Part shown: positions 10,358 to 32,536 of the stretch, piece after piece | Layout of the letters: each line of letters starts with the position of its first letter | Numbering within the stretch: position 1 is the stretch's first letter | IMG/VR virus record: IMGVR_UViG_3300045988_159560 | Reading direction: 5' to 3' (one strand) | From: a virus | DNA: 37,955 bases | Translations under genes and position numbers: made by a program | The notes under the pieces: generated by a model | Seen by the model: only the letters and a program-made list of their open reading frames with translations | What the model was told of the DNA's origin: nothing | Database searches by the model: none

Positions 10358-11664
10358 TCCGTCTCGGTTTTCTCGGTTACCTTTTCGGTCTGATCCTCCT
10401 TCTTCCGGGGGTTGAACACGCGGCCGATCAGGCTCTGTTTCTCTTCCTCCTTCTTTTCGGCTTCGACGTCCGAGGGGTCGATGCCTACGCGCCGGAACGC
10501 TTCGGGCTTGAACTTCGACCCCTGCTTGGCCATCATGTTGCCCACGTCCACGAAGGTGCTGATCGGCAGACGGTCGTCGGGGAGTTCGATGATGGGGGCA
10601 GATTCGATGGAAGCGTCATCGAACAGCACGGCAAGTTTGTGCTTGGTGTCCTCGCGGTTCATAATCATCAGGGCCATTTCGGCGTCGGCGTTCAGGATGT
10701 CCTGATAGATTTCCCAATGTATCTGCGCCAGCTGCTCGGAGTTGGTATTTTTCTCCGTGGAGCCGAGCAGGGTGCCGCCGGTTACCGCCTGCATGATTTC
10801 GGAGCGGTATTCCACGATGTACTCCTTCATTACGCGGAAGGCGTCGGAACCCGTCTGCGTGTTGATGGGGTTTACCTCGATGGAGTAAAGACTCTTGCCG
10901 TTGTTCACCATGTCCTGCACGTAGGGAATCAGGGGAATGGTGAGCATGTCGAGGTTCTGGGCCACGGTCTGGGCCTGCGATTGGGCTTTGGCGTTGTTGG
11001 CGTCGTAACCGATGGTTGTGAGGGGGAAAGAGTACCTTTTGCCCAGCACCTGCCAGTCGTTGAACATCTCCACAATGCCGATCATGGCGCGGGAGATGGA
11101 TTGCAGAAGGCCGAGCTTGAAATCCTGATCGCTTTCCGGCTGGAAGAAGAAGAGGTTGTCGTAGTCCGCGGCGTTGATGACCTGATAGTATTCGAAGGTC
11201 TGGAAACGCAGGGCTTCGTTGAAGATGTCGATGTTGCGCAGGGGGAAGTCCACCACCTTGCGCTTTTCGGGGTTGATGGCCACCATCTTGCATCCGTAGA
11301 ACTGCGACAGGAGGATATATCGGATAAACCGTTTGAACCACCACGAATTCCGGATGTATTTCTCCGTCAGCCGGGAGTTCTCGCGGCCGTTGCGGCCGAA
11401 CACGAAGTTGCGCTTATAGATGGGAATGAGGCGCTTGTTGATCTGCGAGACCAAGAACGGCGACGACTGCATGCACCACGAGTATAGGGTGTCCAGCAGG
11501 GACATGTCCGAGTACTGGATGGCCATGTCCACGGCGCGCCGCCACAGCGCCGGCGTCCACTCCCGGCGGTAGTTGTTGAACAGATACCGGGATTCGATAT
11601 TGCCGGTGCCTACCTGTTGAGGCACAGAGAATGGATTTATGCGAGGGAATTTAAATTTTGCCAT
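10354..11664 (-). CDS. Portal protein
   Basis: 436 aa in the terminase-proximal position, with an acidic C-terminal tail. Size and position fit a portal. The family (possibly Mu gp29/DUF935-like) is not verified. Confidence 0.65.
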   Translation of the reverse strand: MAKFKFPRINPFSVPQQVGTGNIESRYLFNNYRREWTPALWRRAVDMAIQYSDMSLLDTLYSWCMQSSPFLVSQINKRLIPIYKRNFVFGRNGRENSRLTEKYIRNSWWFKRFIRYILLSQFYGCKMVAINPEKRKVVDFPLRNIDIFNEALRFQTFEYYQVINAADYDNLFFFQPESDQDFKLGLLQSISRAMIGIVEMFNDWQVLGKRYSFPLTTIGYDANNAKAQSQAQTVAQNLDMLTIPLIPYVQDMVNNGKSLYSIEVNPINTQTGSDAFRVMKEYIVEYRSEIMQAVTGGTLLGSTEKNTNSEQLAQIHWEIYQDILNADAEMALMIMNREDTKHKLAVLFDDASIESAPIIELPDDRLPISTFVDVGNMMAKQGSKFKPEAFRRVGIDPSDVEAEKKEEEKQSLIGRVFNPRKKEDQTEKVTEKTETE

Positions 11665-12202
11665 ATGCGTATTCGATTAATAATCCATGAACGGTTTTGC
11701 GTCTACCTGAAAGAACTCGGCTTATACTTTGCGGAGTACACCCCAACATGCGAGCGCATTTACCAATTCCTGACAATATAGCCAACTGCTTCCCATTAGG
11801 AAGTGATATCATTAGGGTTTTTCTGGCAGATTCGCCGGATCGTTTATTTCGGGTGCCGTAATTGTGGTTGTACTCAGCCGTACACCACTCCAGATTCTCC
11901 ACGCGATTATCAGTCTTGACCTCGTTCTTGTGGTTTACTTGAGGCAAATTATCGGGATTGGGGATAAATGCTTGCGCCACCAGCCTATGTACTTTGGTAC
12001 TCCATCCCTTCCCGTGTCGGGACAACTGCACGATTGGGTACCCCTTCTTATCAAGAAATGTTCGTACCATTTTATCCCCCATTCGGGTGTTCTTTCGAAC
12101 GCGAGATAAATTTCTGTCCGGGGCGTAAATACGCTTTATGCGACCGAGGTTAGAAACCATATACACCCCTTCATATCCCGGTATGTCTCTCCAAACTTCC
12201 AT
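11651..12202 (-). CDS. Free-standing HNH homing endonuclease (NUMOD4 N-terminus, HNH_3 core, C-terminal HTH)
   Basis: 183 aa from ATG 12202. Motifs: MEVWRDIPGYEGVYMVSNLGRIK, VNHKNEVKTDNRVENLEWCTAEYNHNYG and ARMLGCTPQSISRVLSGRRKTVHG. The gene is visibly more AT-rich than its neighbours. Confidence 0.9.
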   Translation of the reverse strand: MEVWRDIPGYEGVYMVSNLGRIKRIYAPDRNLSRVRKNTRMGDKMVRTFLDKKGYPIVQLSRHGKGWSTKVHRLVAQAFIPNPDNLPQVNHKNEVKTDNRVENLEWCTAEYNHNYGTRNKRSGESARKTLMISLPNGKQLAILSGIGKCARMLGCTPQSISRVLSGRRKTVHGLLIEYAYGKI

Positions 12203-12984
12203 TATCCGAGGTATTTGTAACGGGAGGTGATGACTTCCGCGTTGGCGTTCTGGGAATCGGTGCGGTAGGGCGCCGGCTCTTCGAGCGACACCACTCCGCC
12301 CTTGAGTTTGATGATGGTTTGGGCGACCTTCTCGTAGGCCGCGGCAAGGGGTTCCGAGTAGTTCAGGCTCGGCGATGCGATGTTGTATGCGGTCAGGACC
12401 TGCAAAATCCAGCGTATCGTGTCGTCCTTGCGGCTCTCGTCCTCTTCGCCGAGCATGGCGGCCATGTCGAAGATGTTGCCGATGTTGGCGGTAAGCTCCC
12501 CCACGGCGGCGCGGTAGGCGTCGGAGACGCAGTCCGGGTACATGTTTTTGAACTGCCGAAGCTGTTGGGGCGTGATGTAGATGCCAAGCGCCGATTCGGG
12601 GAAGTAATTCGGCGACATGTCGAGCTGAATGACCGCCGCGGCCCACGCGGCATGGTCCGTGACATCTTCGGTGCATGCGATGTCGATAAAGACGGTTTCG
12701 ACGTCGGCGAGCCACTCGGCGCCGAGCGTTACCGACAAGGGCGATCCGGTGGCCATGACGGGTTCCGTCATCTCCCCCGCGGCGGTGCGGCCGAAGACAA
12801 ACGCCTGATCGGCCTGCGCCTCGAACAGATCGGTGGGCGCCGCGGCGAAGCGCAGATACCCGTCGGGGAATGCCGACGCGGGAAATGATGCGCAGACTTG
12901 CGATGCTACGCCGGGGTCATGCGTTCCGGTCGATGGGTCGTATACGCCCTGAATCCAATTTTGGTTTTTGACTGCTACTGGCAT
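12202..12984 (-). CDS. Hypothetical protein between the large terminase and HNH/portal genes
   Basis: 260 aa from ATG 12984 (ATGA overlap with the terminase stop). The ORF-track extension to 13596 is an Arg-rich out-of-frame overlap with terL. Confidence 0.55.
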   Translation of the reverse strand: MPVAVKNQNWIQGVYDPSTGTHDPGVASQVCASFPASAFPDGYLRFAAAPTDLFEAQADQAFVFGRTAAGEMTEPVMATGSPLSVTLGAEWLADVETVFIDIACTEDVTDHAAWAAAVIQLDMSPNYFPESALGIYITPQQLRQFKNMYPDCVSDAYRAAVGELTANIGNIFDMAAMLGEEDESRKDDTIRWILQVLTAYNIASPSLNYSEPLAAAYEKVAQTIIKLKGGVVSLEEPAPYRTDSQNANAEVITSRYKYLG

Positions 12985-14387
12985 CAGCTTGGAATTTGGG
13001 TCAGCGTGCCGCGGCGGTAGAAGAGTACCTGCGCGCCGTCGGTGCGCGACTGTTGGACAATATTGTGGTTGAGGAACGTGACGCCCTTCGCGCAGGCGTC
13101 GGGTATGTCGTCCTTGCGGTCCGAGGTCTTGGTGTCGGAGAATCGCACGAACTGGTCGATGATATGCTCGTATACGCCGCATTTCTGCAATTCGTTGCAA
13201 AATACGAATTTCCCGGTATTCACCAGCGGCTCCAGCGTCGATTCGATGCACGAGAACTTGTCGCCGTGGTTGAGCGTGTCCCAGCATATCGGCGCCGTCC
13301 ATCGGTTGTCGATCTGGAAGCGTTGCAAGGTCTTCTCGAAGTCGAGGGGAAGCTGTTTCTTCTCGATGATGATTCGCGGGGTCAGGGGCGCTTTCATGGC
13401 CAGCTCGTAGATGTTTTCGAGCATCTGATGGCTCGTGCCCTGCACGGCGCGGCAGTCCCAGAGCCAGATGCGGGTGTCTACGGTCCGCACCAGCGTTACC
13501 GTGGCTTTGAAGTCGTTGGTTTCCTTCGACTTGGCCGAGGGGTCGGTGTAGATCACGCATTCGACGATCTGGTCGATATGCGGCCGGTAGAGCCACGTGA
13601 ACTGCCGGAAATACTTTCCGGTGCCGATCTTCGAATACTCGCCGTCGCGGAAGCGGGCGCGGGAGAGGGTGGAGAGTCGGTCCAGCCCCTGAAAGTACTG
13701 CTTGGACACAAACTGCACGTTGTCGTCTTTGGAGAAGTGCATGGCGTACATCAGCTCCGTGATGGACTCCGAGAGGGGCGATCCGTCCATGTTCTCCTGC
13801 TTGAAGAAGCGTTTGTAGGTCCAGTGCAACTCGGTTGTGGGATTCAGGGCGTAGAGCATGATGTTGGGCACGGGCAACAGCTGCGCAAGACGCGAGTAGA
13901 GGGTTTCGATGGCGGCGAAGTCGATCTCCGACACCTCGTCGGCGAAGATATGACCCCAGTCCGTGGAGAGGATTTTGTCGTAGGTGTCGCCGGCGCCGTC
14001 CGCCCCGGCGCGTATCGACGCGAACTGGATGTAGGCGCCGTTGAACAGCGTCAGCACGTTGTCCTTGCCGTTGTACTTGGCGAAGGGCTTTCCTCCGACC
14101 ATGAGTTTCTGGTATGTTTTCTTGCCGTTAAGTCGGGCTATGGCGTCCAGCACGCGGGGCAGCGTCTGGCGGATCATACCCATGTTGAGCGAGGTGAAGG
14201 TCTCGCGCACCACCAGCGAGTTGGCATTGTAGACAATGGCCTGAACGATCATCCAGAAAAGTATCAGGAAAGTCTTGCCGGAGCGGGATGCGCCGTAAAA
14301 CAGAATTTCCGTGAACTTTCCGGAGTTGAGCAGGTTATACATCTCTACCTGCTTGGGGTTCAGGGGTATGTCCAGCCGTACTTTCAT
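12984..14387 (-). CDS. terL: Terminase large subunit
   Basis: 467 aa. Walker A is GASRSGKT and Walker B-like is HIFADEVSE. The C-terminal region fits a nuclease domain. Confidence 0.85.
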   Translation of the reverse strand: MKVRLDIPLNPKQVEMYNLLNSGKFTEILFYGASRSGKTFLILFWMIVQAIVYNANSLVVRETFTSLNMGMIRQTLPRVLDAIARLNGKKTYQKLMVGGKPFAKYNGKDNVLTLFNGAYIQFASIRAGADGAGDTYDKILSTDWGHIFADEVSEIDFAAIETLYSRLAQLLPVPNIMLYALNPTTELHWTYKRFFKQENMDGSPLSESITELMYAMHFSKDDNVQFVSKQYFQGLDRLSTLSRARFRDGEYSKIGTGKYFRQFTWLYRPHIDQIVECVIYTDPSAKSKETNDFKATVTLVRTVDTRIWLWDCRAVQGTSHQMLENIYELAMKAPLTPRIIIEKKQLPLDFEKTLQRFQIDNRWTAPICWDTLNHGDKFSCIESTLEPLVNTGKFVFCNELQKCGVYEHIIDQFVRFSDTKTSDRKDDIPDACAKGVTFLNHNIVQQSRTDGAQVLFYRRGTLTQIPS

Positions 14388-14776
14388 CAGGTTCTTTCCA
14401 GTGAAACGATCACCTCGTCCTTATCGTCGCCGGCTCCGGCCGCCGAGTCTATTTTCTGCTGTTTTTCCTGCATGACGATGGTCTCCTTAGCCAGCGCGAT
14501 GTAGGTTTTCAGCAGATCCAGTTTCTTTCCGCACTGATATATCAGCTTGTTGTCGGAGGTGCGCATGGTGACGCGGCGCATGACCTCCATGTCCTCCAGC
14601 ACCCCGACTTTCAGCAGGAACTCCGTCACGGGGTTCTTGTCGTCGCCGAAGCGCTTGCGCACGTCCTCGCGGACCTCGGCGCGGACCTCTTCCATCAGGG
14701 CCGCGCGCTCTTCGGCGTCGGCGCCCGCGGCCGGCGCGGCGCCCGCCGCTCTGTTCGCCCACGGATTCGTTCCCAT
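14387..14776 (-). CDS. Candidate terminase small subunit
   Basis: 129-aa ORF whose stop overlaps the terL start (ATGA). Position only. Confidence 0.4.
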   Translation of the reverse strand: MGTNPWANRAAGAAPAAGADAEERAALMEEVRAEVREDVRKRFGDDKNPVTEFLLKVGVLEDMEVMRRVTMRTSDNKLIYQCGKKLDLLKTYIALAKETIVMQEKQQKIDSAAGAGDDKDEVIVSLERT

Positions 14777-14778
14777 CG

Positions 14779-15003
14779 CTACTTGAATTTACGGATGTCG
14801 CACAAAGGCTTGTCTTGGGCCACGGCGCGGACCAGCGCCATGTAGAGACCCGGCCCGGACGCCGGCAGGTCGGGAATGATCTCCAGCTCTTCGTTGTCCA
14901 CCGAAGAGTGGATAGTAACGGTCCCTGTGAACTCGTCGAGGTCGATGCCGATGACGTTCTGGGAGTTTATGCGCACTGCGGATGTGGATTTGGCGATAAT
15001 CAT
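14779..15003 (-). CDS. Hypothetical protein, first gene of the long late operon
   Basis: 74-aa ORF ending in TAG. It lies about 22 nt downstream of a consensus promoter. Confidence 0.5.
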   Translation of the reverse strand: MIIAKSTSAVRINSQNVIGIDLDEFTGTVTIHSSVDNEELEIIPDLPASGPGLYMALVRAVAQDKPLCDIRKFK

Positions 15004-15025
15004 TGCTTCGGGGTTAATGTCCGGA

Positions 15026-15056
15026 CAAACTTAGCGAAATTTCCGATAAAATCAAA
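15026..15056 (-). promoter_or_regulatory. Bacteroidota-type promoter for the morphogenesis operon (TTTG-N19-TAAGTTTG)
   Basis: The minus strand has tttg at 15056-15053, a 19-nt spacer, and taagtttg at 15033-15026. The ATG is at 15003. Confidence 0.65.
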
Positions 15057-15059
15057 AAA

Positions 15060-15091
15060 GAGACGAAAAAGCGCCGGAAAAATTCCGGCGC
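15060..15091 (-). terminator. Intrinsic terminator ending the short leftward unit
   Basis: The minus strand reads gcgccggaa-ttt-ttccggcgc (9-bp stem, 15091-15071) followed by tttttcgtctctttttt. Confidence 0.65.
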
Positions 15092-15282
15092 CGCTGCAAA
15101 ATCCAAAACATTATGCGAACAGGCCGACTGTCAGGCCCAGAGGTTTCGAAAGGCGGCCGGGTACACACCTTAATCTTGGGAAAGGGGGAATGAATCTGAG
15201 AAAAAACAAAACCGCCCCGGCCGATCCGGTTGCGCGCCGGACATCACAAAGATAGGGAGAAATTCCGGATTTCCAAATTTCC

Positions 15283-15651
15283 TCACGCCAGATTTTTCGA
15301 GCTGGCATCCAGCCACCAGTCCGTTCCGGGAATCCGGGCCGCCACCCCGCCGGGATTGAAGTTATTCAGACCCACCACCACGTAGATGCCGAACGCATAT
15401 ATCGGCGCGAAGATTATGCTGACGCCGTCTTCCGAAACCACCGCCGTATACCCGGAGCAGATCATCATGGTACCATCGGCGGCCGACAGTATCAGCCCCG
15501 GACATACGCCCTGATCCAGCGTCCGGAAGATAGCGGGAAGATCGACATTCTCCGCAAGGTTGCGGCTCAGGCTCGCATCATCGTTGCCCACATATTCGGC
15601 CGACCCGGTGAACGAGGCGAAGGCAGTGGGGGGGGGGATGATCTTACGCAT
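15283..15651 (-). CDS. Hypothetical protein with a C10 tract at codons 5-8
   Basis: 122-aa ORF, MRKIIPPPTAFAS..., in the short leftward unit. Confidence 0.5.
   Translation of the reverse strand: MRKIIPPPTAFASFTGSAEYVGNDDASLSRNLAENVDLPAIFRTLDQGVCPGLILSAADGTMMICSGYTAVVSEDGVSIIFAPIYAFGIYVVVGLNNFNPGGVAARIPGTDWWLDASSKNLA
15628..15637. repeat. G10 homopolymer (C10 on the coding strand)
   Basis: The plus strand reads gtggggggggggatg. The tract encodes I-PPP near the 5' end of the 15283..15651 gene. Confidence 0.9.
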
Positions 15652-15654
15652 GGC

Positions 15655-15819
15655 TTACTCTGCTGGCGCCCATCGCTGGGAGATTTCAGTGACAAATACG
15701 TACCACTTCCCGCCGGCCATAGGCTCGTAACCTTCTGCGGGCGTGTCCTTGAGAGAAATGCGCAGGAAGTCGTAGCTCTCATGCTGAGGCGCCCCAGGCG
15801 ACTTACAAAGTATCTTCAT
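15655..15819 (-). CDS. Small hypothetical protein (54 aa), below the ORF-track size cutoff
   Basis: My translation is MKILCKSPGAPQHESYDFLRISLKDTPAEGYEPMAGGKWYVFVTEISQRWAPAE. The stop lies 3 nt before the next ATG, and a -7 box lies upstream. Confidence 0.4.
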   Translation of the reverse strand: MKILCKSPGAPQHESYDFLRISLKDTPAEGYEPMAGGKWYVFVTEISQRWAPAE

Positions 15820-15835
15820 AGCATTACGTTTTGCG

Positions 15836-15843
15836 CAAATATA
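15836..15843 (-). promoter_or_regulatory. TAnnTTTG -7 box (tatatttg) for the short leftward unit, with a weak -33
   Basis: The minus strand reads gcttatatttgcgcaaaacg, 16 nt upstream of ATG 15819. It is embedded in the inverted repeat ttttgc...gcaaaa. Confidence 0.45.
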
Positions 15844-15989
15844 AGCAAAATCCCGAAATGTCGAAACATCAGAGATAATAAAGTTTTTTAGGAACAGGCC
15901 CCGAAAACCAATCCCCCGCGGATTTCAAAGTCGAGTAAGGGAAAGTTCTCAGCCCCATAGTCCCAAAAAAACCACGGGAGAAAATATGG

Positions 15990-16500
15990 AGAGTGTTAGC
16001 ACGGGACCCACCCCCGCCCTGTTTACCCTGCGTTCGTTGCCTTCCCTCGCGCTCGCCTTCGGCTCGCGCTCAGGCCCTAACTGTCCTCCCACCTTCGGCG
16101 CATCGGCTCCACCCAGCCAGCCAGCCAGCCCGATCCCACGATCACACCCCGATCCTCCAGCCGCACCCCTCAGAGATCACCCGCCAGCACACACCCGCCC
16201 ACCCGCTCCCGCCCTCACGCATGCGCACACGCACACGAGCACACCCCCACGCACGCACCCGCATCACACGCATACACTTTCGCGTCACGCACCCGGACGC
16301 CCGCACGTGCCCGCGCTCCTGCGTTGCACACACATAGTAGTATTTCATAGGATAGCGGTATATGTCGAAGGGTAGACCTCCGACCTATGAGCTACGGAAG
16401 CAGGGAGGTACTACCGGTGTGGGCGGGGGTGGGAGTGATGAGGTCGGGGAGGTCGGGTGAGATCGGGGCGGGGGACGCGCGGGGGCAGGTCGGGGGTTCC
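15990..16500. other. Non-coding, strand-asymmetric tract: a C-rich arm (about 16000-16330), an AT-richer centre (about 16335-16400) and a G-rich arm (about 16418-16496)
   Basis: Hand counts: 16021-16320 has C 151, G 57, A 50, T 42; 16421-16500 has G 50, C 12, A 8, T 10. The only ORFs here are low-complexity Pro/His/Thr or Arg/Gly strings. Confidence 0.8.
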
Positions 16501-16565
16501 GCTGCTGGCACTCTCGGATCAGCGAAAAAAAGTTGCGAAAAACCGTGCATTTTTCTTTAGAAAAT

Positions 16566-16596
16566 TTTGCAAAGTAAATATTTTTGCGTATATTTG
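16566..16596 (+). promoter_or_regulatory. Bacteroidota-type early promoter (TTTG-N19-TATATTTG)
   Basis: tttg at 16566-16569 and tatatttg at 16589-16596. The first ATG is at 16627. Confidence 0.7.
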
Positions 16597-16626: not shown

Positions 16627-16926
16627 ATGAAAGCACTTGATTTCCTTGCCATTGTCGCGAAGTACAATGTACCAAATTCGTATTACACCGTGTTCGAGGA
16701 GGGGGAACCCGTCTGCGAGAGGTTGTCCGGGTCGGACGAATACCTTGCCAAGGTGGTTGCGGGGAAAATTCCCGCCGACACTGCCGCAGTAGCCGTATAC
16801 AGCGAGGGATCGGCAAAAGAACTAATAGGATACCTTACCGAAAGGGGACACACAGCTGATGCGGTCGTTTGTGCCTATACCCTTTTCGAACAACCCGGAT
16901 TCGTATTCATCTATTCACTCAAATAA
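16627..16926 (+). CDS. Hypothetical early protein
   Basis: 99 aa from the first ATG after the promoter. The ORF-track TTG start at 16567 lies inside the promoter. Confidence 0.55.
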   Translation: MKALDFLAIVAKYNVPNSYYTVFEEGEPVCERLSGSDEYLAKVVAGKIPADTAAVAVYSEGSAKELIGYLTERGHTADAVVCAYTLFEQPGFVFIYSLK

Positions 16927-22720: not shown

Positions 22721-22813
22721 GACTTGCCCTCGCATGTATGATATAATGGCCGCAAGGTCATTCCAAGCGAACCGACAGGAAGGGCAAGTTCTTGTTGGTT
22801 CGCTTTATTTTTC
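22721..22813 (+). promoter_or_regulatory. Structured 5' leader or short RNA ending in an intrinsic terminator, upstream of the replication gene
   Basis: GNRA hairpin: aatggcc-gcaa-ggtcatt (22745-22762). Extended terminator stem: aagcgaacc/ggttcgctt (22765-22773 with 22797-22805) plus caggaa/ttcttg (22776-22781 with 22789-22794), followed by tatttttc. An alternative pairing joins acttgccct (22722-22730) to agggcaagt (22781-22789). Confidence 0.5.
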
Positions 22814-22821
22814 AACCTATT

Positions 22822-23766
22822 ATGAAGCTAAAGGACATACAAAATGGATGGATGAAAATTCCTACCGAATGGTACCGGGAGACCAGCGTTAAGTCATGTC
22901 GGGAACACGCCATGATCCAATGGTTGGTTATGAACGCGAACATTACGGAATCGGAGTGGAACGGGATCACGGTTAAACGCGGGCAAGTGGTGACGAGTCT
23001 GTCTAAGTTGAGCGAAGGGGTACAACAAAGTCTCCAACAAACACGCAACACACTTGACAACATAGTCAACAACAAAGAAGTAACAAAGACGGCAACAAAG
23101 ACGTATACCATAATAACTATCTGTAATTTCGATAATTACGTCGGTTTAAATTTTTGCGATAACAAAGAGGAGAACAAAGAAGCAACACAGCGAGCAACAC
23201 AGCGAGCAACAAAGAAGCAACACAGCGAGCAACAACAGATAAGAGATATTATAGAGAAGAAAGACATAGAGAGTACTTCTCGTACTGACGTACTCGAAGA
23301 TGCCGAGATAATAGATATTTCAGAAGATGCTGGTAAAAACTCAAAGCGCGTGCGCGCGAGAGAGAAGCCGGAAACCCCGAAGGAGGTGACGTGGCGAGAC
23401 AGCTTCGAGGTCTACCTGCAAGATTGCCGGGACGCATGGAAGAGATGGGTTGGCAACAGGGAGTGGATGGCAGAACGACAACGGTTCAATCCCGGCGTGA
23501 ATATCAAACTGACGCTTGAAAAGGCATGCAAGGAGTTTTGGGCCACGGAGGCCGGATGGTTGCACAAGAAAAAGAGCCGATGCAAGACGATAGACTGGAA
23601 ACGGATATTCGAATACGCGATTTCACAAAAAACAAACCGAGTGTATGAACGATCAAAAGACAATTCCCGCGGTAAGGATGGACTTACCGACGAGGAACGA
23701 GAACAGCTCGAAAGAGCTTTGCGAGGCGCTGCTAACGCCAGAGGAGTCCATGAGACTATTCCGTAA
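22822..23766 (+). CDS. Replication initiator / replisome-organiser-like protein (winged-helix N-terminus)
   Basis: 314 aa from ATG 22822 (MKLKDIQNGWMKIPTEWY...). RGQVVTSLSKLSEGVQQSLQQTRNTLDNIV fits a wHTH. A low-complexity linker coincides with the DNA repeats. Confidence 0.5.
   Translation: MKLKDIQNGWMKIPTEWYRETSVKSCREHAMIQWLVMNANITESEWNGITVKRGQVVTSLSKLSEGVQQSLQQTRNTLDNIVNNKEVTKTATKTYTIITICNFDNYVGLNFCDNKEENKEATQRATQRATKKQHSEQQQIRDIIEKKDIESTSRTDVLEDAEIIDISEDAGKNSKRVRAREKPETPKEVTWRDSFEVYLQDCRDAWKRWVGNREWMAERQRFNPGVNIKLTLEKACKEFWATEAGWLHKKKSRCKTIDWKRIFEYAISQKTNRVYERSKDNSRGKDGLTDEEREQLERALRGAANARGVHETIP
23071..23238. repeat. Iteron-like phased repeats flanking a 60-bp AT-rich island, inside the replication gene
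   Basis: AACAAAG starts at 23071, 23082, 23094, 23161, 23173 and 23208. GCAACAMAG-type 9-mers start at 23182, 23194, 23206, 23217 and 23229, spaced 11-12 bp. Region 23101-23160 has 17 G+C out of 60. Confidence 0.5.
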
Positions 23767-24259
23767 GCACCTCACGCCGCTGGCCTGCGCCAACTCCGGA
23801 GCCTATTCGTTGTCGGCCCTGCGAAGGATTCACAACGAAGATTCGGTAATTATGATGCTCGTCGCATGGATTTCCAACCTTCAAAGGTTTCTGAACGTGT
23901 CAGCCAAAATGGACGCCGCGCAGATGTACGAGACTTGCCGGATGATACTCGACGACTTCTGGGCATTGAACTGCGCCGATGTGCACCTTGTGATGCTGCG
24001 TGCAAAACAAGGATTCTTCGGACAGTTGTTCGGACGTATCGACGGGCAGATCATCTACCAGTGGTTCGCTCAGTACTTCGACGAGAGATGCGAGGCATGT
24101 GCCGGCCGAGAGATTCACATAGCCGGTCTGCATGATGCCGTAATCAATCGCATCGACGATGAAACGAAGGCAAAGATTCTTGAAATGTGGGAGAGGGGAA
24201 AGAAGGAGAAGATCAAGAATGCCTCTGTTTGCGATTCCTTGGCGGGTAGAATCGAATGA
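23645..24259 (+). CDS. Hypothetical replication-module protein, start uncertain
   Basis: 204-aa maximal ORF that overlaps the previous gene by 122 nt. Alternative starts are 23678 (MDLPTR) and 23750 (MRLFRK). Confidence 0.45.
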   Translation: MNDQKTIPAVRMDLPTRNENSSKELCEALLTPEESMRLFRKHLTPLACANSGAYSLSALRRIHNEDSVIMMLVAWISNLQRFLNVSAKMDAAQMYETCRMILDDFWALNCADVHLVMLRAKQGFFGQLFGRIDGQIIYQWFAQYFDERCEACAGREIHIAGLHDAVINRIDDETKAKILEMWERGKKEKIKNASVCDSLAGRIE

Positions 24260-24317
24260 AACCACCAAAGTGGTACATGGTATCACCTGAATATTTTTAA
24301 ACGAAATTTGAGGGATT

Positions 24318-24596
24318 ATGGCGACAAAACGAGATATTATTAGACAGAAAATATGGAGTCTTATTGGGGAGCTGACCATGGAGGTGTATGCCTATCAACC
24401 TAACCCAGCCGAGTATCGTTGGGTGTCAGAATTTTTCGGCCCAGACAAAATACCTGCCCACGCAATCACCAGCGGCAACCAATACGCCAACATATACGAT
24501 GTTGTGCGCTATGTCGAATGGCAGCACGCCACTGGCAGTTTGTTCGACGACGACACGGCGACCAGCTGCATGAGTTATTACGGATTATGCGAATAG
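24318..24596 (+). CDS. Hypothetical protein translationally coupled to the radical-SAM gene
   Basis: 92 aa. Its stop (24594-24596) lies 10 nt inside the radical-SAM ORF that starts at 24587. Confidence 0.5.
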   Translation: MATKRDIIRQKIWSLIGELTMEVYAYQPNPAEYRWVSEFFGPDKIPAHAITSGNQYANIYDVVRYVEWQHATGSLFDDDTATSCMSYYGLCE

Positions 24597-25464
24597 GTTT
24601 GGTTGACATAGACGGTCACAACTTTCCGAACCTCGCGCTGATGAAACTGTCAGCTTGGCATAAATCGCAGGGTGATTCGGTGGAGTTCGCCGACCCGATG
24701 TTCGGTCGCTACGACCGGGTTTACATGTCGAAGGTTTTCACTTTCACGCCCGATTGTCCGGACATCTACCATTGCGAGGTGATCCGGGGCGGGACGGGAT
24801 TCCGGGACTATACGACGGTACTGCCCGGTGAGATCGAGCATATTTGCCCGGATTATTCGCTGTACGGAGTAAATGAAGCCTACGGATTCCTTACCCGTGG
24901 CTGTCCGAATCGCTGCCCGTGGTGCATTGTTCCGCACAAAGAAGGAGCCATCCGGCCTGCGTCCCCGCTACGGGAATTCTCGGTGATAAACACCGGGCTG
25001 TATTGCTCGACAACAATGTGCTGGCATCGGACTTTGGGCTTGAACAGATCGAAGAAATAATCCGCATGGGCATCGCGGTAGACTTCAATCAAGGGCTGGA
25101 CGCCCGGCTGGCCGGCAACGACGCTTACATTCTCGATTTGTTGTCGCGGGTGAAGTGGATTCAGCATATTCGGTTTGCCTGCGACCGGATATCGCAACTG
25201 GAGGCGGTTACAAAGTGTGTCCAAGAGTTGGGGCGCCGAGGCATCAAGTCATATCGCATTTTCGTCTACTGCCTGATACAAGATGTAGATGAATCATTGG
25301 AACGGATCAACGCCCTGCGCAAACTGGGAGTCTGCCCGTTTGCCCAGCCTTACCGGGATTTCGATAATAACATTGAGCCGACGAAGGAGCAAAAACGGCT
25401 GGCGCGTTGGTGTAACCACAAGGCAATTTTCAAGAGTGTTGAATTCAAAAACTACAAATTATGA
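24587..25464 (+). pseudogene. Radical SAM enzyme interrupted by a single frame change (1-nt indel, sequencing error or recoding)
   Basis: The N-terminal part in frame 2 starts MRIGLVDIDGHNFPNLALMKLSAWHKSQGD (Rossmann/B12-binding-like) and contains FLTRGCPNRCPWC (CxxxCxxC). The protein-like sequence continues in frame 1 from about 24953-24985 (...LGDKHRAVLLDNNVLASDFGLEQ...) to 25464. The first frame terminates at 25060. Confidence 0.65.
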
Positions 25465-25838
25465 AAGACCAAGTAACGAGCATCGAGCAGTCGAAGCGGC
25501 TGATCGAACTGGGAGTGCCCGCGGAGAAGGCGAGCATGGTGTACCGAAAAACCAATATTTTAGGCATCGTCCGTCTGGAGGTAAAAAAGGGCAAAGGTGG
25601 TGTCGTAGCCCCCGCCTTCACGGTCGCCGACCTGCTGGAGCTTCTCCCGTCGATGATTTTTATAGGAATTAGATTTAATCCTATCTTGGAAAAGACCGGG
25701 GAGGATGGATGGGATTTTGAGTTCGGCCAAATTTTACAGGACAAGGAATATGGTTTCGCCCACAATAAAAGCCTTATCGACCTTCTCGTCGGCCGTATTG
25801 AGTGGGTGGTGTCTAACGGATATGGTTTGAACCTATGA
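25461..25838 (+). CDS. Hypothetical protein
   Basis: 125 aa with ATGA overlaps on both sides. Confidence 0.5.
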   Translation: MKDQVTSIEQSKRLIELGVPAEKASMVYRKTNILGIVRLEVKKGKGGVVAPAFTVADLLELLPSMIFIGIRFNPILEKTGEDGWDFEFGQILQDKEYGFAHNKSLIDLLVGRIEWVVSNGYGLNL

Positions 25839-26284
25839 AACTACCTATCGAAGTTCACAACAAATTGATCCCGTTCAAGGGATTCAGCTGGGTAACATGG
25901 CTGGTGTTCGCGTTCACCCGTAAGCCGATGGCGTGGAGCATGGACGAGACAACACGCCGACACGAAGGAATCCACTGCGCCCAGCAGATCGAACTGGCTG
26001 GGCTGTTCGCGGCAATCCTCCTGCCCGTCGCCATAAGCTACTCGTTCGCGTGGTGGGGCTGGGTCCTGACGGTGTTAGGCATTCTCTTCGCCGGCTGGAT
26101 TTGCTACGGCATTTCGTGGCTGATCGAAGTGATTATCCCGCCTTATCCGGGCGCTTACTACTACACCTGCTTCGAGACCGAGGCATACAACCACGAGGAT
26201 GATCCGGACTACTTGAGGCGGCGAATACCGTTCTGGGGCTGGATTTCCTGTATACCTAATCGGAAAGTTAAACACAAAAGATAA
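25835..26284 (+). CDS. Polytopic membrane protein with an HExxH motif (putative membrane metalloprotease-like)
   Basis: 149 aa. RRHEGIHCAQQIE is followed by hydrophobic helices (LAGLFAAILLPVAISYSFAWWGWVLTVLGILFAGWICYGISWLIEVII). Confidence 0.4.
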   Translation: MKLPIEVHNKLIPFKGFSWVTWLVFAFTRKPMAWSMDETTRRHEGIHCAQQIELAGLFAAILLPVAISYSFAWWGWVLTVLGILFAGWICYGISWLIEVIIPPYPGAYYYTCFETEAYNHEDDPDYLRRRIPFWGWISCIPNRKVKHKR

Positions 26285-29663: not shown

Positions 29664-30089
29664 ATGGAATTTGAGATTTTGGACCGATTGCTGGCGACGA
29701 TTGCCGTCACTACCCAGAATGTCCGCGGCCGTCATTGGACGCTGTACGGAGAGCATTATAAGAGCTGGCATCCTTTTTTCGACGAGGTGTATAAAAAGCT
29801 CAACGAAGCGGCCGACAATGTCGCCGAGTTGATCGTTCAGCTGGGCGGAGTTCCAGTGCACAGCATGTCGGGATTCATTGAAACCTCCGTGGTGGCCGAC
29901 ATGGTAACGTTGGGTGACTGGCGGCGTTATGTACGCGAGACCCGCGACGAGCTGGCCGAGATCATCGAGATCATCAACAAGAACGACAAGGAGGGGGTTT
30001 GGGATGGCGCCGCATCGAACGACCTGACCCAGATTGCCAGCACCCTGCGGCATTACTACATGTTTGCCGCCCAAACCTTGAAGGAGTAA
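29664..30089 (+). CDS. dps: Dps-family ferritin-like protein (DNA protection during starvation)
   Basis: 141 aa. RGRHWTLYGEHYKSWHPFFDEVYKKLNEAADNVAELIVQLGGVP. His24, His36, Asp51 and Glu55 reproduce the 12/15/19-residue spacing of the E. coli Dps ferroxidase ligands H51, H63, D78 and E82. Confidence 0.8.
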   Translation: MEFEILDRLLATIAVTTQNVRGRHWTLYGEHYKSWHPFFDEVYKKLNEAADNVAELIVQLGGVPVHSMSGFIETSVVADMVTLGDWRRYVRETRDELAEIIEIINKNDKEGVWDGAASNDLTQIASTLRHYYMFAAQTLKE

Positions 30090-31531: not shown

Positions 31532-32536
31532 TCAAGGGTACGTGTTTTTACCGTCGTACGTCACGAAAGAATACGAGCTTACCATCCACACTCCGTCTAC
31601 GATCAGGATGGTTTGAGATGGAATATTTATAAGATAAGTTGTGGTGTTGTTGGGCTGAGTAAGGGTCAGCGAAAGACCAAAATTGGTCTTGTTGCTCACC
31701 ACAATTTTGATAGGCACCCCCTCGGAGGACGGGGGTGTTTCCGTGGTAATGGTTATGTTGCGGGCCCGACCCGATGCTTCGATCACCAGCCATGCCCACG
31801 GAGTAGCGTGAATGGTGGTGTCTGCAATCGTAGGCCGGTAATAGGGCATATAGGGCATGCCGACAGCAAATGCCATCTTACTGCTGGTCACGGAGCCGGG
31901 CGCCAAAATGGAGTTGGTCACGGAGCCGGGCGCCAAAATGGAGTTGGTCACGGAGCCGGGCGCCATCTTGGGGGTAGTGATGGCGGAATCGGCTACTGCC
32001 TGCGTCTGCACGATGTTTGCAGGCAGGTTGTTGTCGATGTAGTCCCAGCGCCACAAGGTGCTGATGGATTTTACGTAGGCGATCCATGCCGTGGGTTTCA
32101 TCATTCCCGCAACCGCGCCGTCCACGATCTCCCACAGGCCAGTTTCGGCTTCGTAGTCGGTCGATGTTCCCGTTTGCTTGGCCGTAGTGACCATGAGGGA
32201 ATAGACGATGTTCTGGTAGTACGATTGTCCCGTGGACGAGGTTCGGGGCTCTGCCGTGTCGTTCTGGGCTTTGGCATACAGATAGCTGCCCTTCGGGATA
32301 GAAAGGGTATCACCGTTCGGAGTCGGGAAAAACTTGCCGTACATCAGCACGCCGCCGCCCTTGTTGATTCGCAGGGAGGTGTTTTGAGGGCCTATCACTC
32401 CCTTCAAAATGCAGTAGGGAATCGGGCACGGCCACGCGCCCATCATGCCGAAGATGGTGTCGGCCATCGCGGCAAGGTCCGAGACGAACACCCGGTTGCC
32501 GTTCGAAGTGGCTATGAATTTCTTGATTGTTGCCAT
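31532..32536 (-). CDS. Tail fibre / receptor-binding protein with 10-aa tandem repeats
   Basis: 334 aa, the last gene of the late operon. It contains APGSVTNSIL-APGSVTNSIL-APGSVTSSKM. Confidence 0.55.
   Translation of the reverse strand: MATIKKFIATSNGNRVFVSDLAAMADTIFGMMGAWPCPIPYCILKGVIGPQNTSLRINKGGGVLMYGKFFPTPNGDTLSIPKGSYLYAKAQNDTAEPRTSSTGQSYYQNIVYSLMVTTAKQTGTSTDYEAETGLWEIVDGAVAGMMKPTAWIAYVKSISTLWRWDYIDNNLPANIVQTQAVADSAITTPKMAPGSVTNSILAPGSVTNSILAPGSVTSSKMAFAVGMPYMPYYRPTIADTTIHATPWAWLVIEASGRARNITITTETPPSSEGVPIKIVVSNKTNFGLSLTLTQPNNTTTYLINIPSQTILIVDGVWMVSSYSFVTYDGKNTYP
31886..31968. repeat. 30-bp tandem repeat, about 2.8 copies (ggtcacggagccgggcgccaaaatggagtt)
   Basis: Two perfect units at 31886-31915 and 31916-31945, plus a partial third unit. 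Confidence 0.95.

Follow-up and report, generated by a model that had tools for sequence, protein, structure and literature searches.

A strand-asymmetric, gene-free spacer between the early and late operons of a family of human-gut phages as a possible DNA-level insulator or switch

The IMG/VR virus record IMGVR_UViG_3300045988_159560, a stretch of 37,955 nucleotides that is referred to below in its entirety as the window, harbours at positions 15,844 to 16,565 a gene-free tract with a C-rich left arm, an AT-richer centre and a G-rich right arm. Our best reading, held with low confidence, is that this tract is the central cis-acting control region at the sole point where transcription of the genome diverges. 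We tentatively propose that it acts at the level of double-stranded DNA, insulating the early operon from the late one or switching between them. The tract appears to be of a known kind, viz., a phage intergenic control region, and its unusual aspect is that composition and architecture are conserved and not sequence. A literature search found no description of such a phage element.

The evidence for this reading comes from distant relatives, whose loci were retrieved via terminase homologues of 87, 80, 69, 60, 54, 52, 50 and 45% identity. Every lineage has a spacer of 0.7-1.5 kb, free of open reading frames (ORFs), between divergent early and late operons, and the order of its parts is constant: late promoter, A/C-rich flank, a composite motif designated Box A, C-rich arm, a block of alternating pyrimidines and purines, AT-richer centre, C-poor arm and early promoter. 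The corresponding parts of the window are as follows, with the strand given for the promoter elements.

15836 to 15843, minus strand: late-side -7 box TATATTTG, read from the sequence
15844 to 15991: left flank, A/T- and A/C-rich, with CCCCCGCGGATTTCAAAG, delimited from alignments
15992 to 16027: Box A, consisting of the near-palindrome AGTGTTAGCAC, about 10 nt, a C-run and CTGTTTACC, kept in nine lineages
16028 to 16104: start of the C-rich arm, C/T-rich, with CTCGCG-type direct repeats around TTCGG (16046-16071), from a tandem-repeat scan
16105 to 16190: hypervariable block of the C-rich arm, with (CCAG)n and CCCGATCC repeats, in which 87-100% of columns vary
16191 to 16336: conserved core, CA/CG-rich, with low variation and the longest alternating run
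16337 to 16410: AT-richer centre, from reading the sequence
16411 to 16505: G-rich arm, with GAGGTCGGG-type units at a spacing of 9-10 nt (16437-16494) and G-quadruplex (G4) motifs (16446-16496)
16506 to 16565: right flank, nearly invariant, whose A-tracts immediately precede the early promoter (GGATCAGCGAAAAAAAGTTGCGAAAAACCGTGCATTTTTC)
16566 to 16596, plus strand: early promoter TTTG-N19-TATATTTG, a full match to the Bacteroidetes consensus

Box A has the consensus AGTGCTAG.A, 8-12 nt, a C-run and CTGTTTACC, is found in nine lineages with terminase identities of 45-100%, and is single-copy in the window and in each genome or locus; in the group with 52% terminase identity (hereafter group 2) a G-run takes the place of the C-run. 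Strings resembling CTCGC..TTCG..CTCGC follow Box A in L127, L131, L133 and L134 also. The polarity of the spacer, with C exceeding G on the left and G exceeding C on the right, is kept in seven of eight lineages. In the window, L127, L128, L129, L132, L133, L134 and L053, in this order, the left-arm C/G ratios are 2.6, 2.5, 1.9, 2.9, 2.6, 3.9, 1.5 and 1.5, and the right-arm G/C ratios are 2.6, 3.0, 2.3, 2.8, 2.1, 1.9, 1.6 and 0.9. The arm sequences themselves are unrelated, with no alignable similarity between lineages, and the C-rich arm consists in each lineage of its own simple repeats. Alternating runs of at least 22 nt are present in six of the eight lineages, with runs of 22-50 nt at the equivalent place in L127, L128, L129, L132 and L053 (50 nt in L129, the relative with 69% terminase identity). 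An nhmmer comparison of a profile of the window's group with group 2 matched only the CA/CG core (E ~1e-4) and the promoter, and this core is the sole interior part that could be aligned to group 2; among the flanks, CCCCCGGATTTACAAA is the group 2 equivalent of the left-flank CCCCCGCGGATTTCAAAG, and the right-flank GTGCATTTTT is shared with that group. The repeats and palindromes of 9-10 nt in the centre differ by lineage (L129, for instance, has GTTACTATATAGTAAC). A canonical G4 motif is seen in the right arm of one of the eight lineages, that of the window, and elsewhere this arm is C-poor and not G4-forming. By these comparisons, the family conserves the architecture, the polarity, Box A and the alternating block, but neither the arm sequences nor the G4 or i-motif motifs.

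The gene map places the tract at its single point of divergence. The late genes, which include the large terminase (12984-14387), an HNH nuclease, portal, head, tail and lysin genes, run leftward on the minus strand from 15819 down to 199 and then, on the circular map, from 37767 to 31532; the early genes, which include a RecE-like exonuclease, RecT, an endonuclease, a DnaD-like initiator and radical-SAM genes, run rightward on the plus strand from 16627 to about 31300. The pattern TTTG...TAnnTTTG is typical of Bacteroidetes promoters, and TTTG-N17-23-TAnnTTTG at operon heads was observed six times in the window against an expectation of 0.49. An earlier note on this DNA, made from the letters alone, had described promoters firing outward from both ends of the tract. 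On the right, the full consensus is present at 16566-16596 and fires into the operon with RecE, RecT and the initiator; on the left, however, there is a -7 box only (15843-15836), for which no TTTG was found at the -33 spacing. This late-side box, which is invariant in nine relatives, fires leftward into small late genes, the large terminase and portal. Across the eight lineages, all 22 TAnnTTTG boxes in the spacers (22/22) point outward, every recognisable promoter lies at the outer edges, and no Bacteroidetes-type promoter was found in the spacer centre; neither a promoter nor a terminator was found inside the tract of the window. Since no integrase was found in the window, and no relative by terminase among 185,579 GTDB genomes, the phage is probably a virulent one. 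Its hosts are probably human-gut Bacteroidetes. A host or prophage context for the tract was rejected, as GTDB genomes gave neither a terminase relative nor an exact 31-mer match.

The small genes that flank the spacer (14779-15819, 16627-16926 and their equivalents in L002-L025) are mosaic, while the terminase is 99-100% identical. Among these loci and the window, the first early gene is of at least three different types, small genes on the late side occur in some loci and are missing from others, and the distance between the conserved neighbours around the spacer ranges from 1.1 to 2.2 kb.

Within the window, the base counts that the earlier note had made by hand are exact: C151 G57 A50 T42 at 16021-16320 (skew -0.45), C95/180 at 16141-16320, and G50 C12 A8 T10 at 16421-16500 (skew +0.61). 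The strings that it had located, cccgcccacccgctcccgccc at 16194-16214 and (CCAG)4 at 16113-16128, could also be recovered there, as could its G3+N1-7 quadruplex motifs at 16446-16496. The window maximum of G4Hunter scoring, 2.28, falls in the G arm (16411-16505), and motifs of four or more C3+ runs with loops of 1-7 nt are present at 16007-16028 and 16194-16214. That nothing else in the genome looks like the tract is supported: at a scale of 300 nt, the lowest skew in the 37,955-bp window is -0.48 at 16007 and the next is -0.17 (mean +0.07, standard deviation 0.10). At a scale of 80 nt, the skew of the G arm (+0.68) is not unique in itself, as +0.69 is reached at position 31606 and -0.65 at position 16900. 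Similarly, the centre is AT-richer relative to the arms only and has about 45% G+C in itself; it contains CATAGG/CCTATG (16346-16351, 16384-16389), two minus-strand AGGTC units (16376-16386) and GGGAGGTACTAC. The longest alternating pyrimidine-purine run of the window, which the earlier note had not named, spans 22 nt in the core (16216-16237), and three more alternating runs of at least 11 nt lie within 120 bp (16248-16258, 16265-16277 and 16325-16336). The core also holds a near-palindrome, ACACTTTCGCGTCACGC, at 16274-16290.

An artefact of assembly can be discounted, since the tract is present at 84-95% identity in more than 20 independent assemblies from different samples (IMG/VR, human-gut metagenomes); these close relatives, whose alignment comprises 20 distinct tract versions, keep both the tract and its skew flip. 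Its ORFs, which had been described in the earlier note as low-complexity strings, are not genes, because the ATG at 15986 of the Pro-rich ORF (15986-16375) is lost in four of nine relatives and because the relatives' tracts carry 1-nt indels and deletions of 26, 37 and 63 nt. This ORF is not conserved as a reading frame, no tract ORF has a Pfam match, and the tract is non-coding.

Variation among close relatives with terminases of 96-99% DNA identity was set against the third-codon columns of the terminase, of which 15.6% are variable. Relative to this baseline, only the CA/CG core at 16220-16299 and the early promoter (7% variable in each case) are clearly constrained, the core being the least variable interior part of the tract. 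Most other blocks are 15-35% variable, and two, at 16100-16180 and 16420-16500, are hypervariable. In the former, relatives have a second allele substituted or 63 nt deleted; in the latter, 37 nt are deleted in L013 and L121 and 26 nt in L094, which suggests that the G arm is partly dispensable. The paired arm deletions of L013 and L121 were considered as a case of co-variation, and this was rejected as in L094 only the G arm carries a deletion and the second allele of the C arm is combined with several different types of G arm.

Such variation raises the question of whether the tract is simply neutral DNA made by replication slippage and tolerated since the promoters need nothing more than separation. 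The short tandem repeats (CCAG, CTCGCG, CACGCA and GAGGTCGGG), the hypervariable blocks, the tolerance of large deletions and an overall divergence at or above a synonymous-like rate would all be expected on this account. However, the ORF-free gap of 0.7-1.5 kb is kept in compact genomes of 35-40 kb over terminase identities of 45-100%, it retains the part order, Box A, the polarity and the alternating block, and the core is less variable than the third codon positions of the terminase. We consider neutral slippage to be quite unlikely as the explanation of the tract.

We favour instead, tentatively as stated above, the reading of the tract as an insulator or switch, which would operate as follows. 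According to the twin-domain model, the region between divergent promoters is underwound by transcription, and in this manner negative supercoils from the two outward-firing promoters would build up in the spacer during transcription of the operons. The classical substrate of the B-to-Z transition, which relieves supercoil stress, is an alternating CG/CA tract, and Z-DNA upstream of a transcribed gene has been shown in vivo in plasmids. The alternating block of the spacer, a long CG/CA-rich run with the sequence character of such substrates, is predicted to flip to Z-DNA under negative supercoiling, and the arms with their G- and C-runs could change structure too in the window's lineage. These structural flips would absorb torsional stress and could thereby decouple or time the two promoters. 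The spacer resembles supercoil domains with Z-DNA inserts in being bounded by two outward promoters and in carrying alternating CG/CA tracts of 22-50 nt, but differs from them in being natural, 0.7-1.5 kb long, conserved in a family and equipped with skewed arms and a unique box, with a transition that is predicted.

The arms may contribute at the level of RNA as well. The G-rich strand of each arm runs 5'->3' away from the centre, and owing to this polarity an inward transcript from either side would be C-rich and G-poor; it is also predicted to be weakly folded (minimum free energy per nt of -0.14 to -0.20 vs -0.28 to -0.30 for genome windows). Rho loads on C-rich, G-poor, unstructured RNA at Rho utilization (rut) sites such as those of lambda tR1 and the rho leader. 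The composition of a rut site (at least 80 nt, C-rich, G-poor and weakly structured) would be present in inward transcripts of both arms, which would share with rut regions a C/G ratio of 1.5-3.9 over 140-380 nt and a weak predicted fold. Rho could load on such transcripts, and stray inward transcription would then be stopped before it reaches the opposite operon. Unlike known rut regions, the phage element would need to act on both strands in mirror orientation and has no known inward promoter. Box A and the short central repeats would, in this mechanism, likely be the protein-binding sites that set the switch. A stronger proposal, in which the Z-DNA-prone core and the mirror arms form a hitherto undescribed timing device that senses torsion, ends inward transcription and sets the early-to-late shift across the family, appears unlikely.

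The earlier note had listed a non-B-DNA element insulating or regulating the two promoters among the possible roles, and the data are compatible with this, the comparative support coming from the alternating block and the polarity and not from quadruplexes. G4 and i-motif structures are not supported as the essential feature: the window has the sequences required for both, but they are not conserved, as the canonical right-arm G4 is confined to this lineage and close relatives have deleted its 37-nt core.

Several points count against the insulator or switch. Among close relatives, most of the tract varies at or above the terminase third-codon rate, and purifying selection could be demonstrated for the core and promoters only. 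L133 and L134 have a reduced alternating block or none, with only TA-type or right-arm runs of 13-17 nt. None of the eight lineages yielded an inward-facing consensus promoter, which leaves the proposed loading of Rho without a known substrate. The formation of Z-DNA, G4 and i-motif in vivo is predicted, and the asymmetry of the strands may have arisen by mutation during some oriented process rather than as a selected property. Lastly, no regulator was identified, and a scan of early proteins turned up neither a sigma factor nor a helix-turn-helix protein.

The boxes and repeats also lend themselves to a different explanation, in which Box A, the GCGTCACGC near-palindrome and the repeats of the centre and right arm bind at least one regulator of the phage, by which the spacer is looped and early and late timing are set, and the skewed arms are filler from replication slippage with a composition that is functionless in itself. 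Boxes of palindromic or near-palindromic form are indeed conserved across lineages, and lineage-specific repeats of 9-10 nt recur at one place, such as GTTACT with three direct and two inverted copies in L129 and the GAGGTCGGG units in the window. A motif resembling Box A, YTAGYAM, is about 10-fold enriched in the spacers and recurs in the centre of L127, L132, L133 and L134, and the arms are hypervariable simple tandem repeats. Nevertheless, the analysis identified no regulator that binds DNA, the GAGGTCGGG array is deleted in some relatives, and filler leaves the polarity in seven of eight lineages unexplained; we regard such an operator or enhancer array as unlikely. Box A was also considered as a promoter of the extracytoplasmic function (ECF) sigma type or as a general late promoter, and this was rejected given that the spacing of its halves varies from 21 to 24 nt, that it occurs once per genome and that no sigma factor was found among the early proteins scanned.

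The polarity of the arms is also that which favours R-loops, since the G-rich non-template strand points outward on both sides. It could be imagined that unrecognised central promoters fire outward and that their G-rich RNAs hybridise with the DNA, where they would prime a second origin or regulate the promoters. GC-skewed bidirectional human promoters of the CpG-island type are reported to form R-loops with that polarity (PMC3787257), and they share with the tract a negative skew to the left and a positive skew to the right of the centre, with G-rich strands pointing outward; their transcription starts at the centre, however, whereas the recognisable phage promoters lie at the outer edges with the skewed DNA upstream of them. 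Extra outward -7 boxes are present deeper in the spacer of L132 (at 856 and 910) and L053 (at 200 and 227), and a weak sigma-70-like site lies at 16368-16339 on the minus strand of the window. Yet promoters of this host group are not of the sigma-70 type, the centre of the spacer is devoid of Bacteroidetes-type promoters in the eight lineages, a probable classical iteron origin lies elsewhere, and there is no genome-wide skew flip at the tract. R-loop formation or priming from the centre thus seems improbable.

A role of the tract as a replication origin, which the earlier note had entertained on account of the skew flip, is not supported. To the left and to the right of the tract alike, the GC skew of the top strand is positive, and the cumulative skew rises throughout the window with a local dip only, so that the tract does not coincide with a genome-wide skew switch. 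Moreover, the DnaD-like initiator gene (22792-23766) contains an iteron-like array at 23024-23243, with AGCAACACAGCG x4.6 and CAACAAAGACGG x2.9, and initiator alleles with a different N-terminal half carry at the same place either about 12 copies of AAACCCAGAG followed by (TGATAC)5-14, or TAACACACGAGG. Iterons inside the initiator gene that co-vary with the protein are the arrangement of lambda O and ori-lambda. Because the iterons in the initiator gene are allele-specific, the origin most likely lies at about 23.1 kb, and replication probably starts elsewhere than at the tract. The window resembles a lambda-type origin in the iterons at 23024-23243, but the repeats of the tract are unrelated to these and do not track the initiator allele. 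In the relative L142, a 15-nt unit, GCGGAGCCGACCTGC, is repeated x13.9 just upstream of the initiator gene (1151-1358); the window lacks this array.

The position of the tract upstream of the large-terminase operon suggests yet another role, that of a packaging (pac) region at the head of the late operon in which the periodic repeats of 9-10 nt serve as binding sites of the small terminase. In L134 and group 2, the spacer directly adjoins the small gene that precedes the terminase. Herpesvirus pac1 comprises a C-run, an A/T core and a G-run within about 30 bp, and the likeness lies in the order of C-rich, AT-richer and G-rich parts near terminase genes; the phage tract, however, extends over about 700 bp and shows no evidence of cleavage. 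In the window, three genes and more than 1 kb separate the tract from the small gene next to the terminase, relatives can do without the repeat array, and no small terminase subunit could be identified by PHROGs, Pfam or BLASTP. Many assemblies do end inside the tract, but these ends are scattered over 16002-16506 and, like those of a second cluster at 14714-14760, coincide with very GC-rich DNA. They do not define a fixed end of the pac or cos kind, although assemblies, unlike virion reads, are weak evidence on this point, and termini or a cos site at the break points were rejected with the same caveat. No evidence supporting a packaging role was found in the tract, and we consider it very unlikely.

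In the second cluster, at least eight independent contigs end within about 45 nt, and one contig starts with a garbled G-run; the breaks in both GC-rich hotspots point to a drop-out of short-read coverage and not to genome ends. The very GC-rich region 14714-14760 encodes the Ala/Gly-rich N-terminus of a 129-aa ORF just upstream of the terminase. In contig IMGVR_UViG_3300045988_179145 (L009:1-1904, L034:1-63), the sequence continues after window position 16037 into about 1.9 kb of unrelated coding-like DNA, of which a 63-nt piece also begins contig IMGVR_UViG_3300045988_179145, and the junction at 16037 is probably a mis-join at CA/CG-rich low-complexity sequence. As a practical matter, the tract and 14714-14760 are recurrent break points in short-read metagenome assemblies.

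A long conserved non-coding region might also be a non-coding RNA gene or a long structured leader. The plus strand folds with z = -2.0, and several one-sided changes preserve G-U pairs in a predicted outer helix. The single-sequence folds are weak, however (z = -2.0 and -0.7), and RNAalifold on 21 sequences gave a covariation term of +1.18 with one of 118 pairs compensatory, a test whose power is limited by the closeness of the relatives. In the window and group 2, Rfam searches gave no match at the gathering score and chance-level hits only at E up to 10, and ARAGORN called no tRNA. The complementarity of the arms does not exceed that of composition-matched shuffles (z -0.6 to +1.35 in five lineages), the 13/13 inverted repeat at 16007/16421 is specific to the window, and no internal promoter or terminator was found. 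An RNA gene or leader is accordingly highly improbable, and a long hairpin or RNA helix between the arms was rejected on the weak folds, the lack of covariation and the comparison with shuffled arms. A cruciform or long inverted repeat was likewise set aside, as arm pairing in the five lineages does not go beyond composition, and so was a Dam/GATC cluster (195 GATC observed vs 201 expected). Downstream of the early promoter of L129, the minus strand of this locus (50-110) contains a string that resembles a tRNA T-arm, GGTTCGATTCC, at which ARAGORN calls no tRNA.

GenBank phages contain no DNA similar to the tract, and MT835567 matches the window only at 23276-26279. A gene with Gly-Cys-(Lys/Glu)-Leu repeats is present in L001:3880-4010 (MT835567) and in L053:2290-3012, and the window is without it at the matching place. 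A few other features of the window were noted. Between the large terminase and portal lies a gene for a 354-aa HNH endonuclease (11651-12715), whose position is occupied in more distant relatives by an unrelated gene of 227-257 aa (132-134 aa or 407 aa in the most distant). The overlapping ORFs 24419-25060 and 24919-25464 match the first and second halves of one radical-SAM family (phrog_9298), and could represent a frameshift, a split gene or a sequencing error. An early-operon protein (29664-30089) has a ferritin/Dps-like domain (Pfam PF00210, E 8.5e-10), its PHROGs label being DNA-binding protein. The tail-fibre-like gene 31532-32536 contains a perfect 30-nt tandem repeat of 2.7 copies (TGGTCACGGAGCCGGGCGCCAAAATGGAGT) at 31885-31965.

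Gene-free stretches of 0.7-1.5 kb are rare in compact phage genomes, and yet a family of abundant uncultured human-gut phages keeps one at the point where its early and late operons diverge. If the polarity and the alternating block of this spacer are functional, it would be a natural and conserved case of DNA topology or non-B DNA regulating divergent viral operons.

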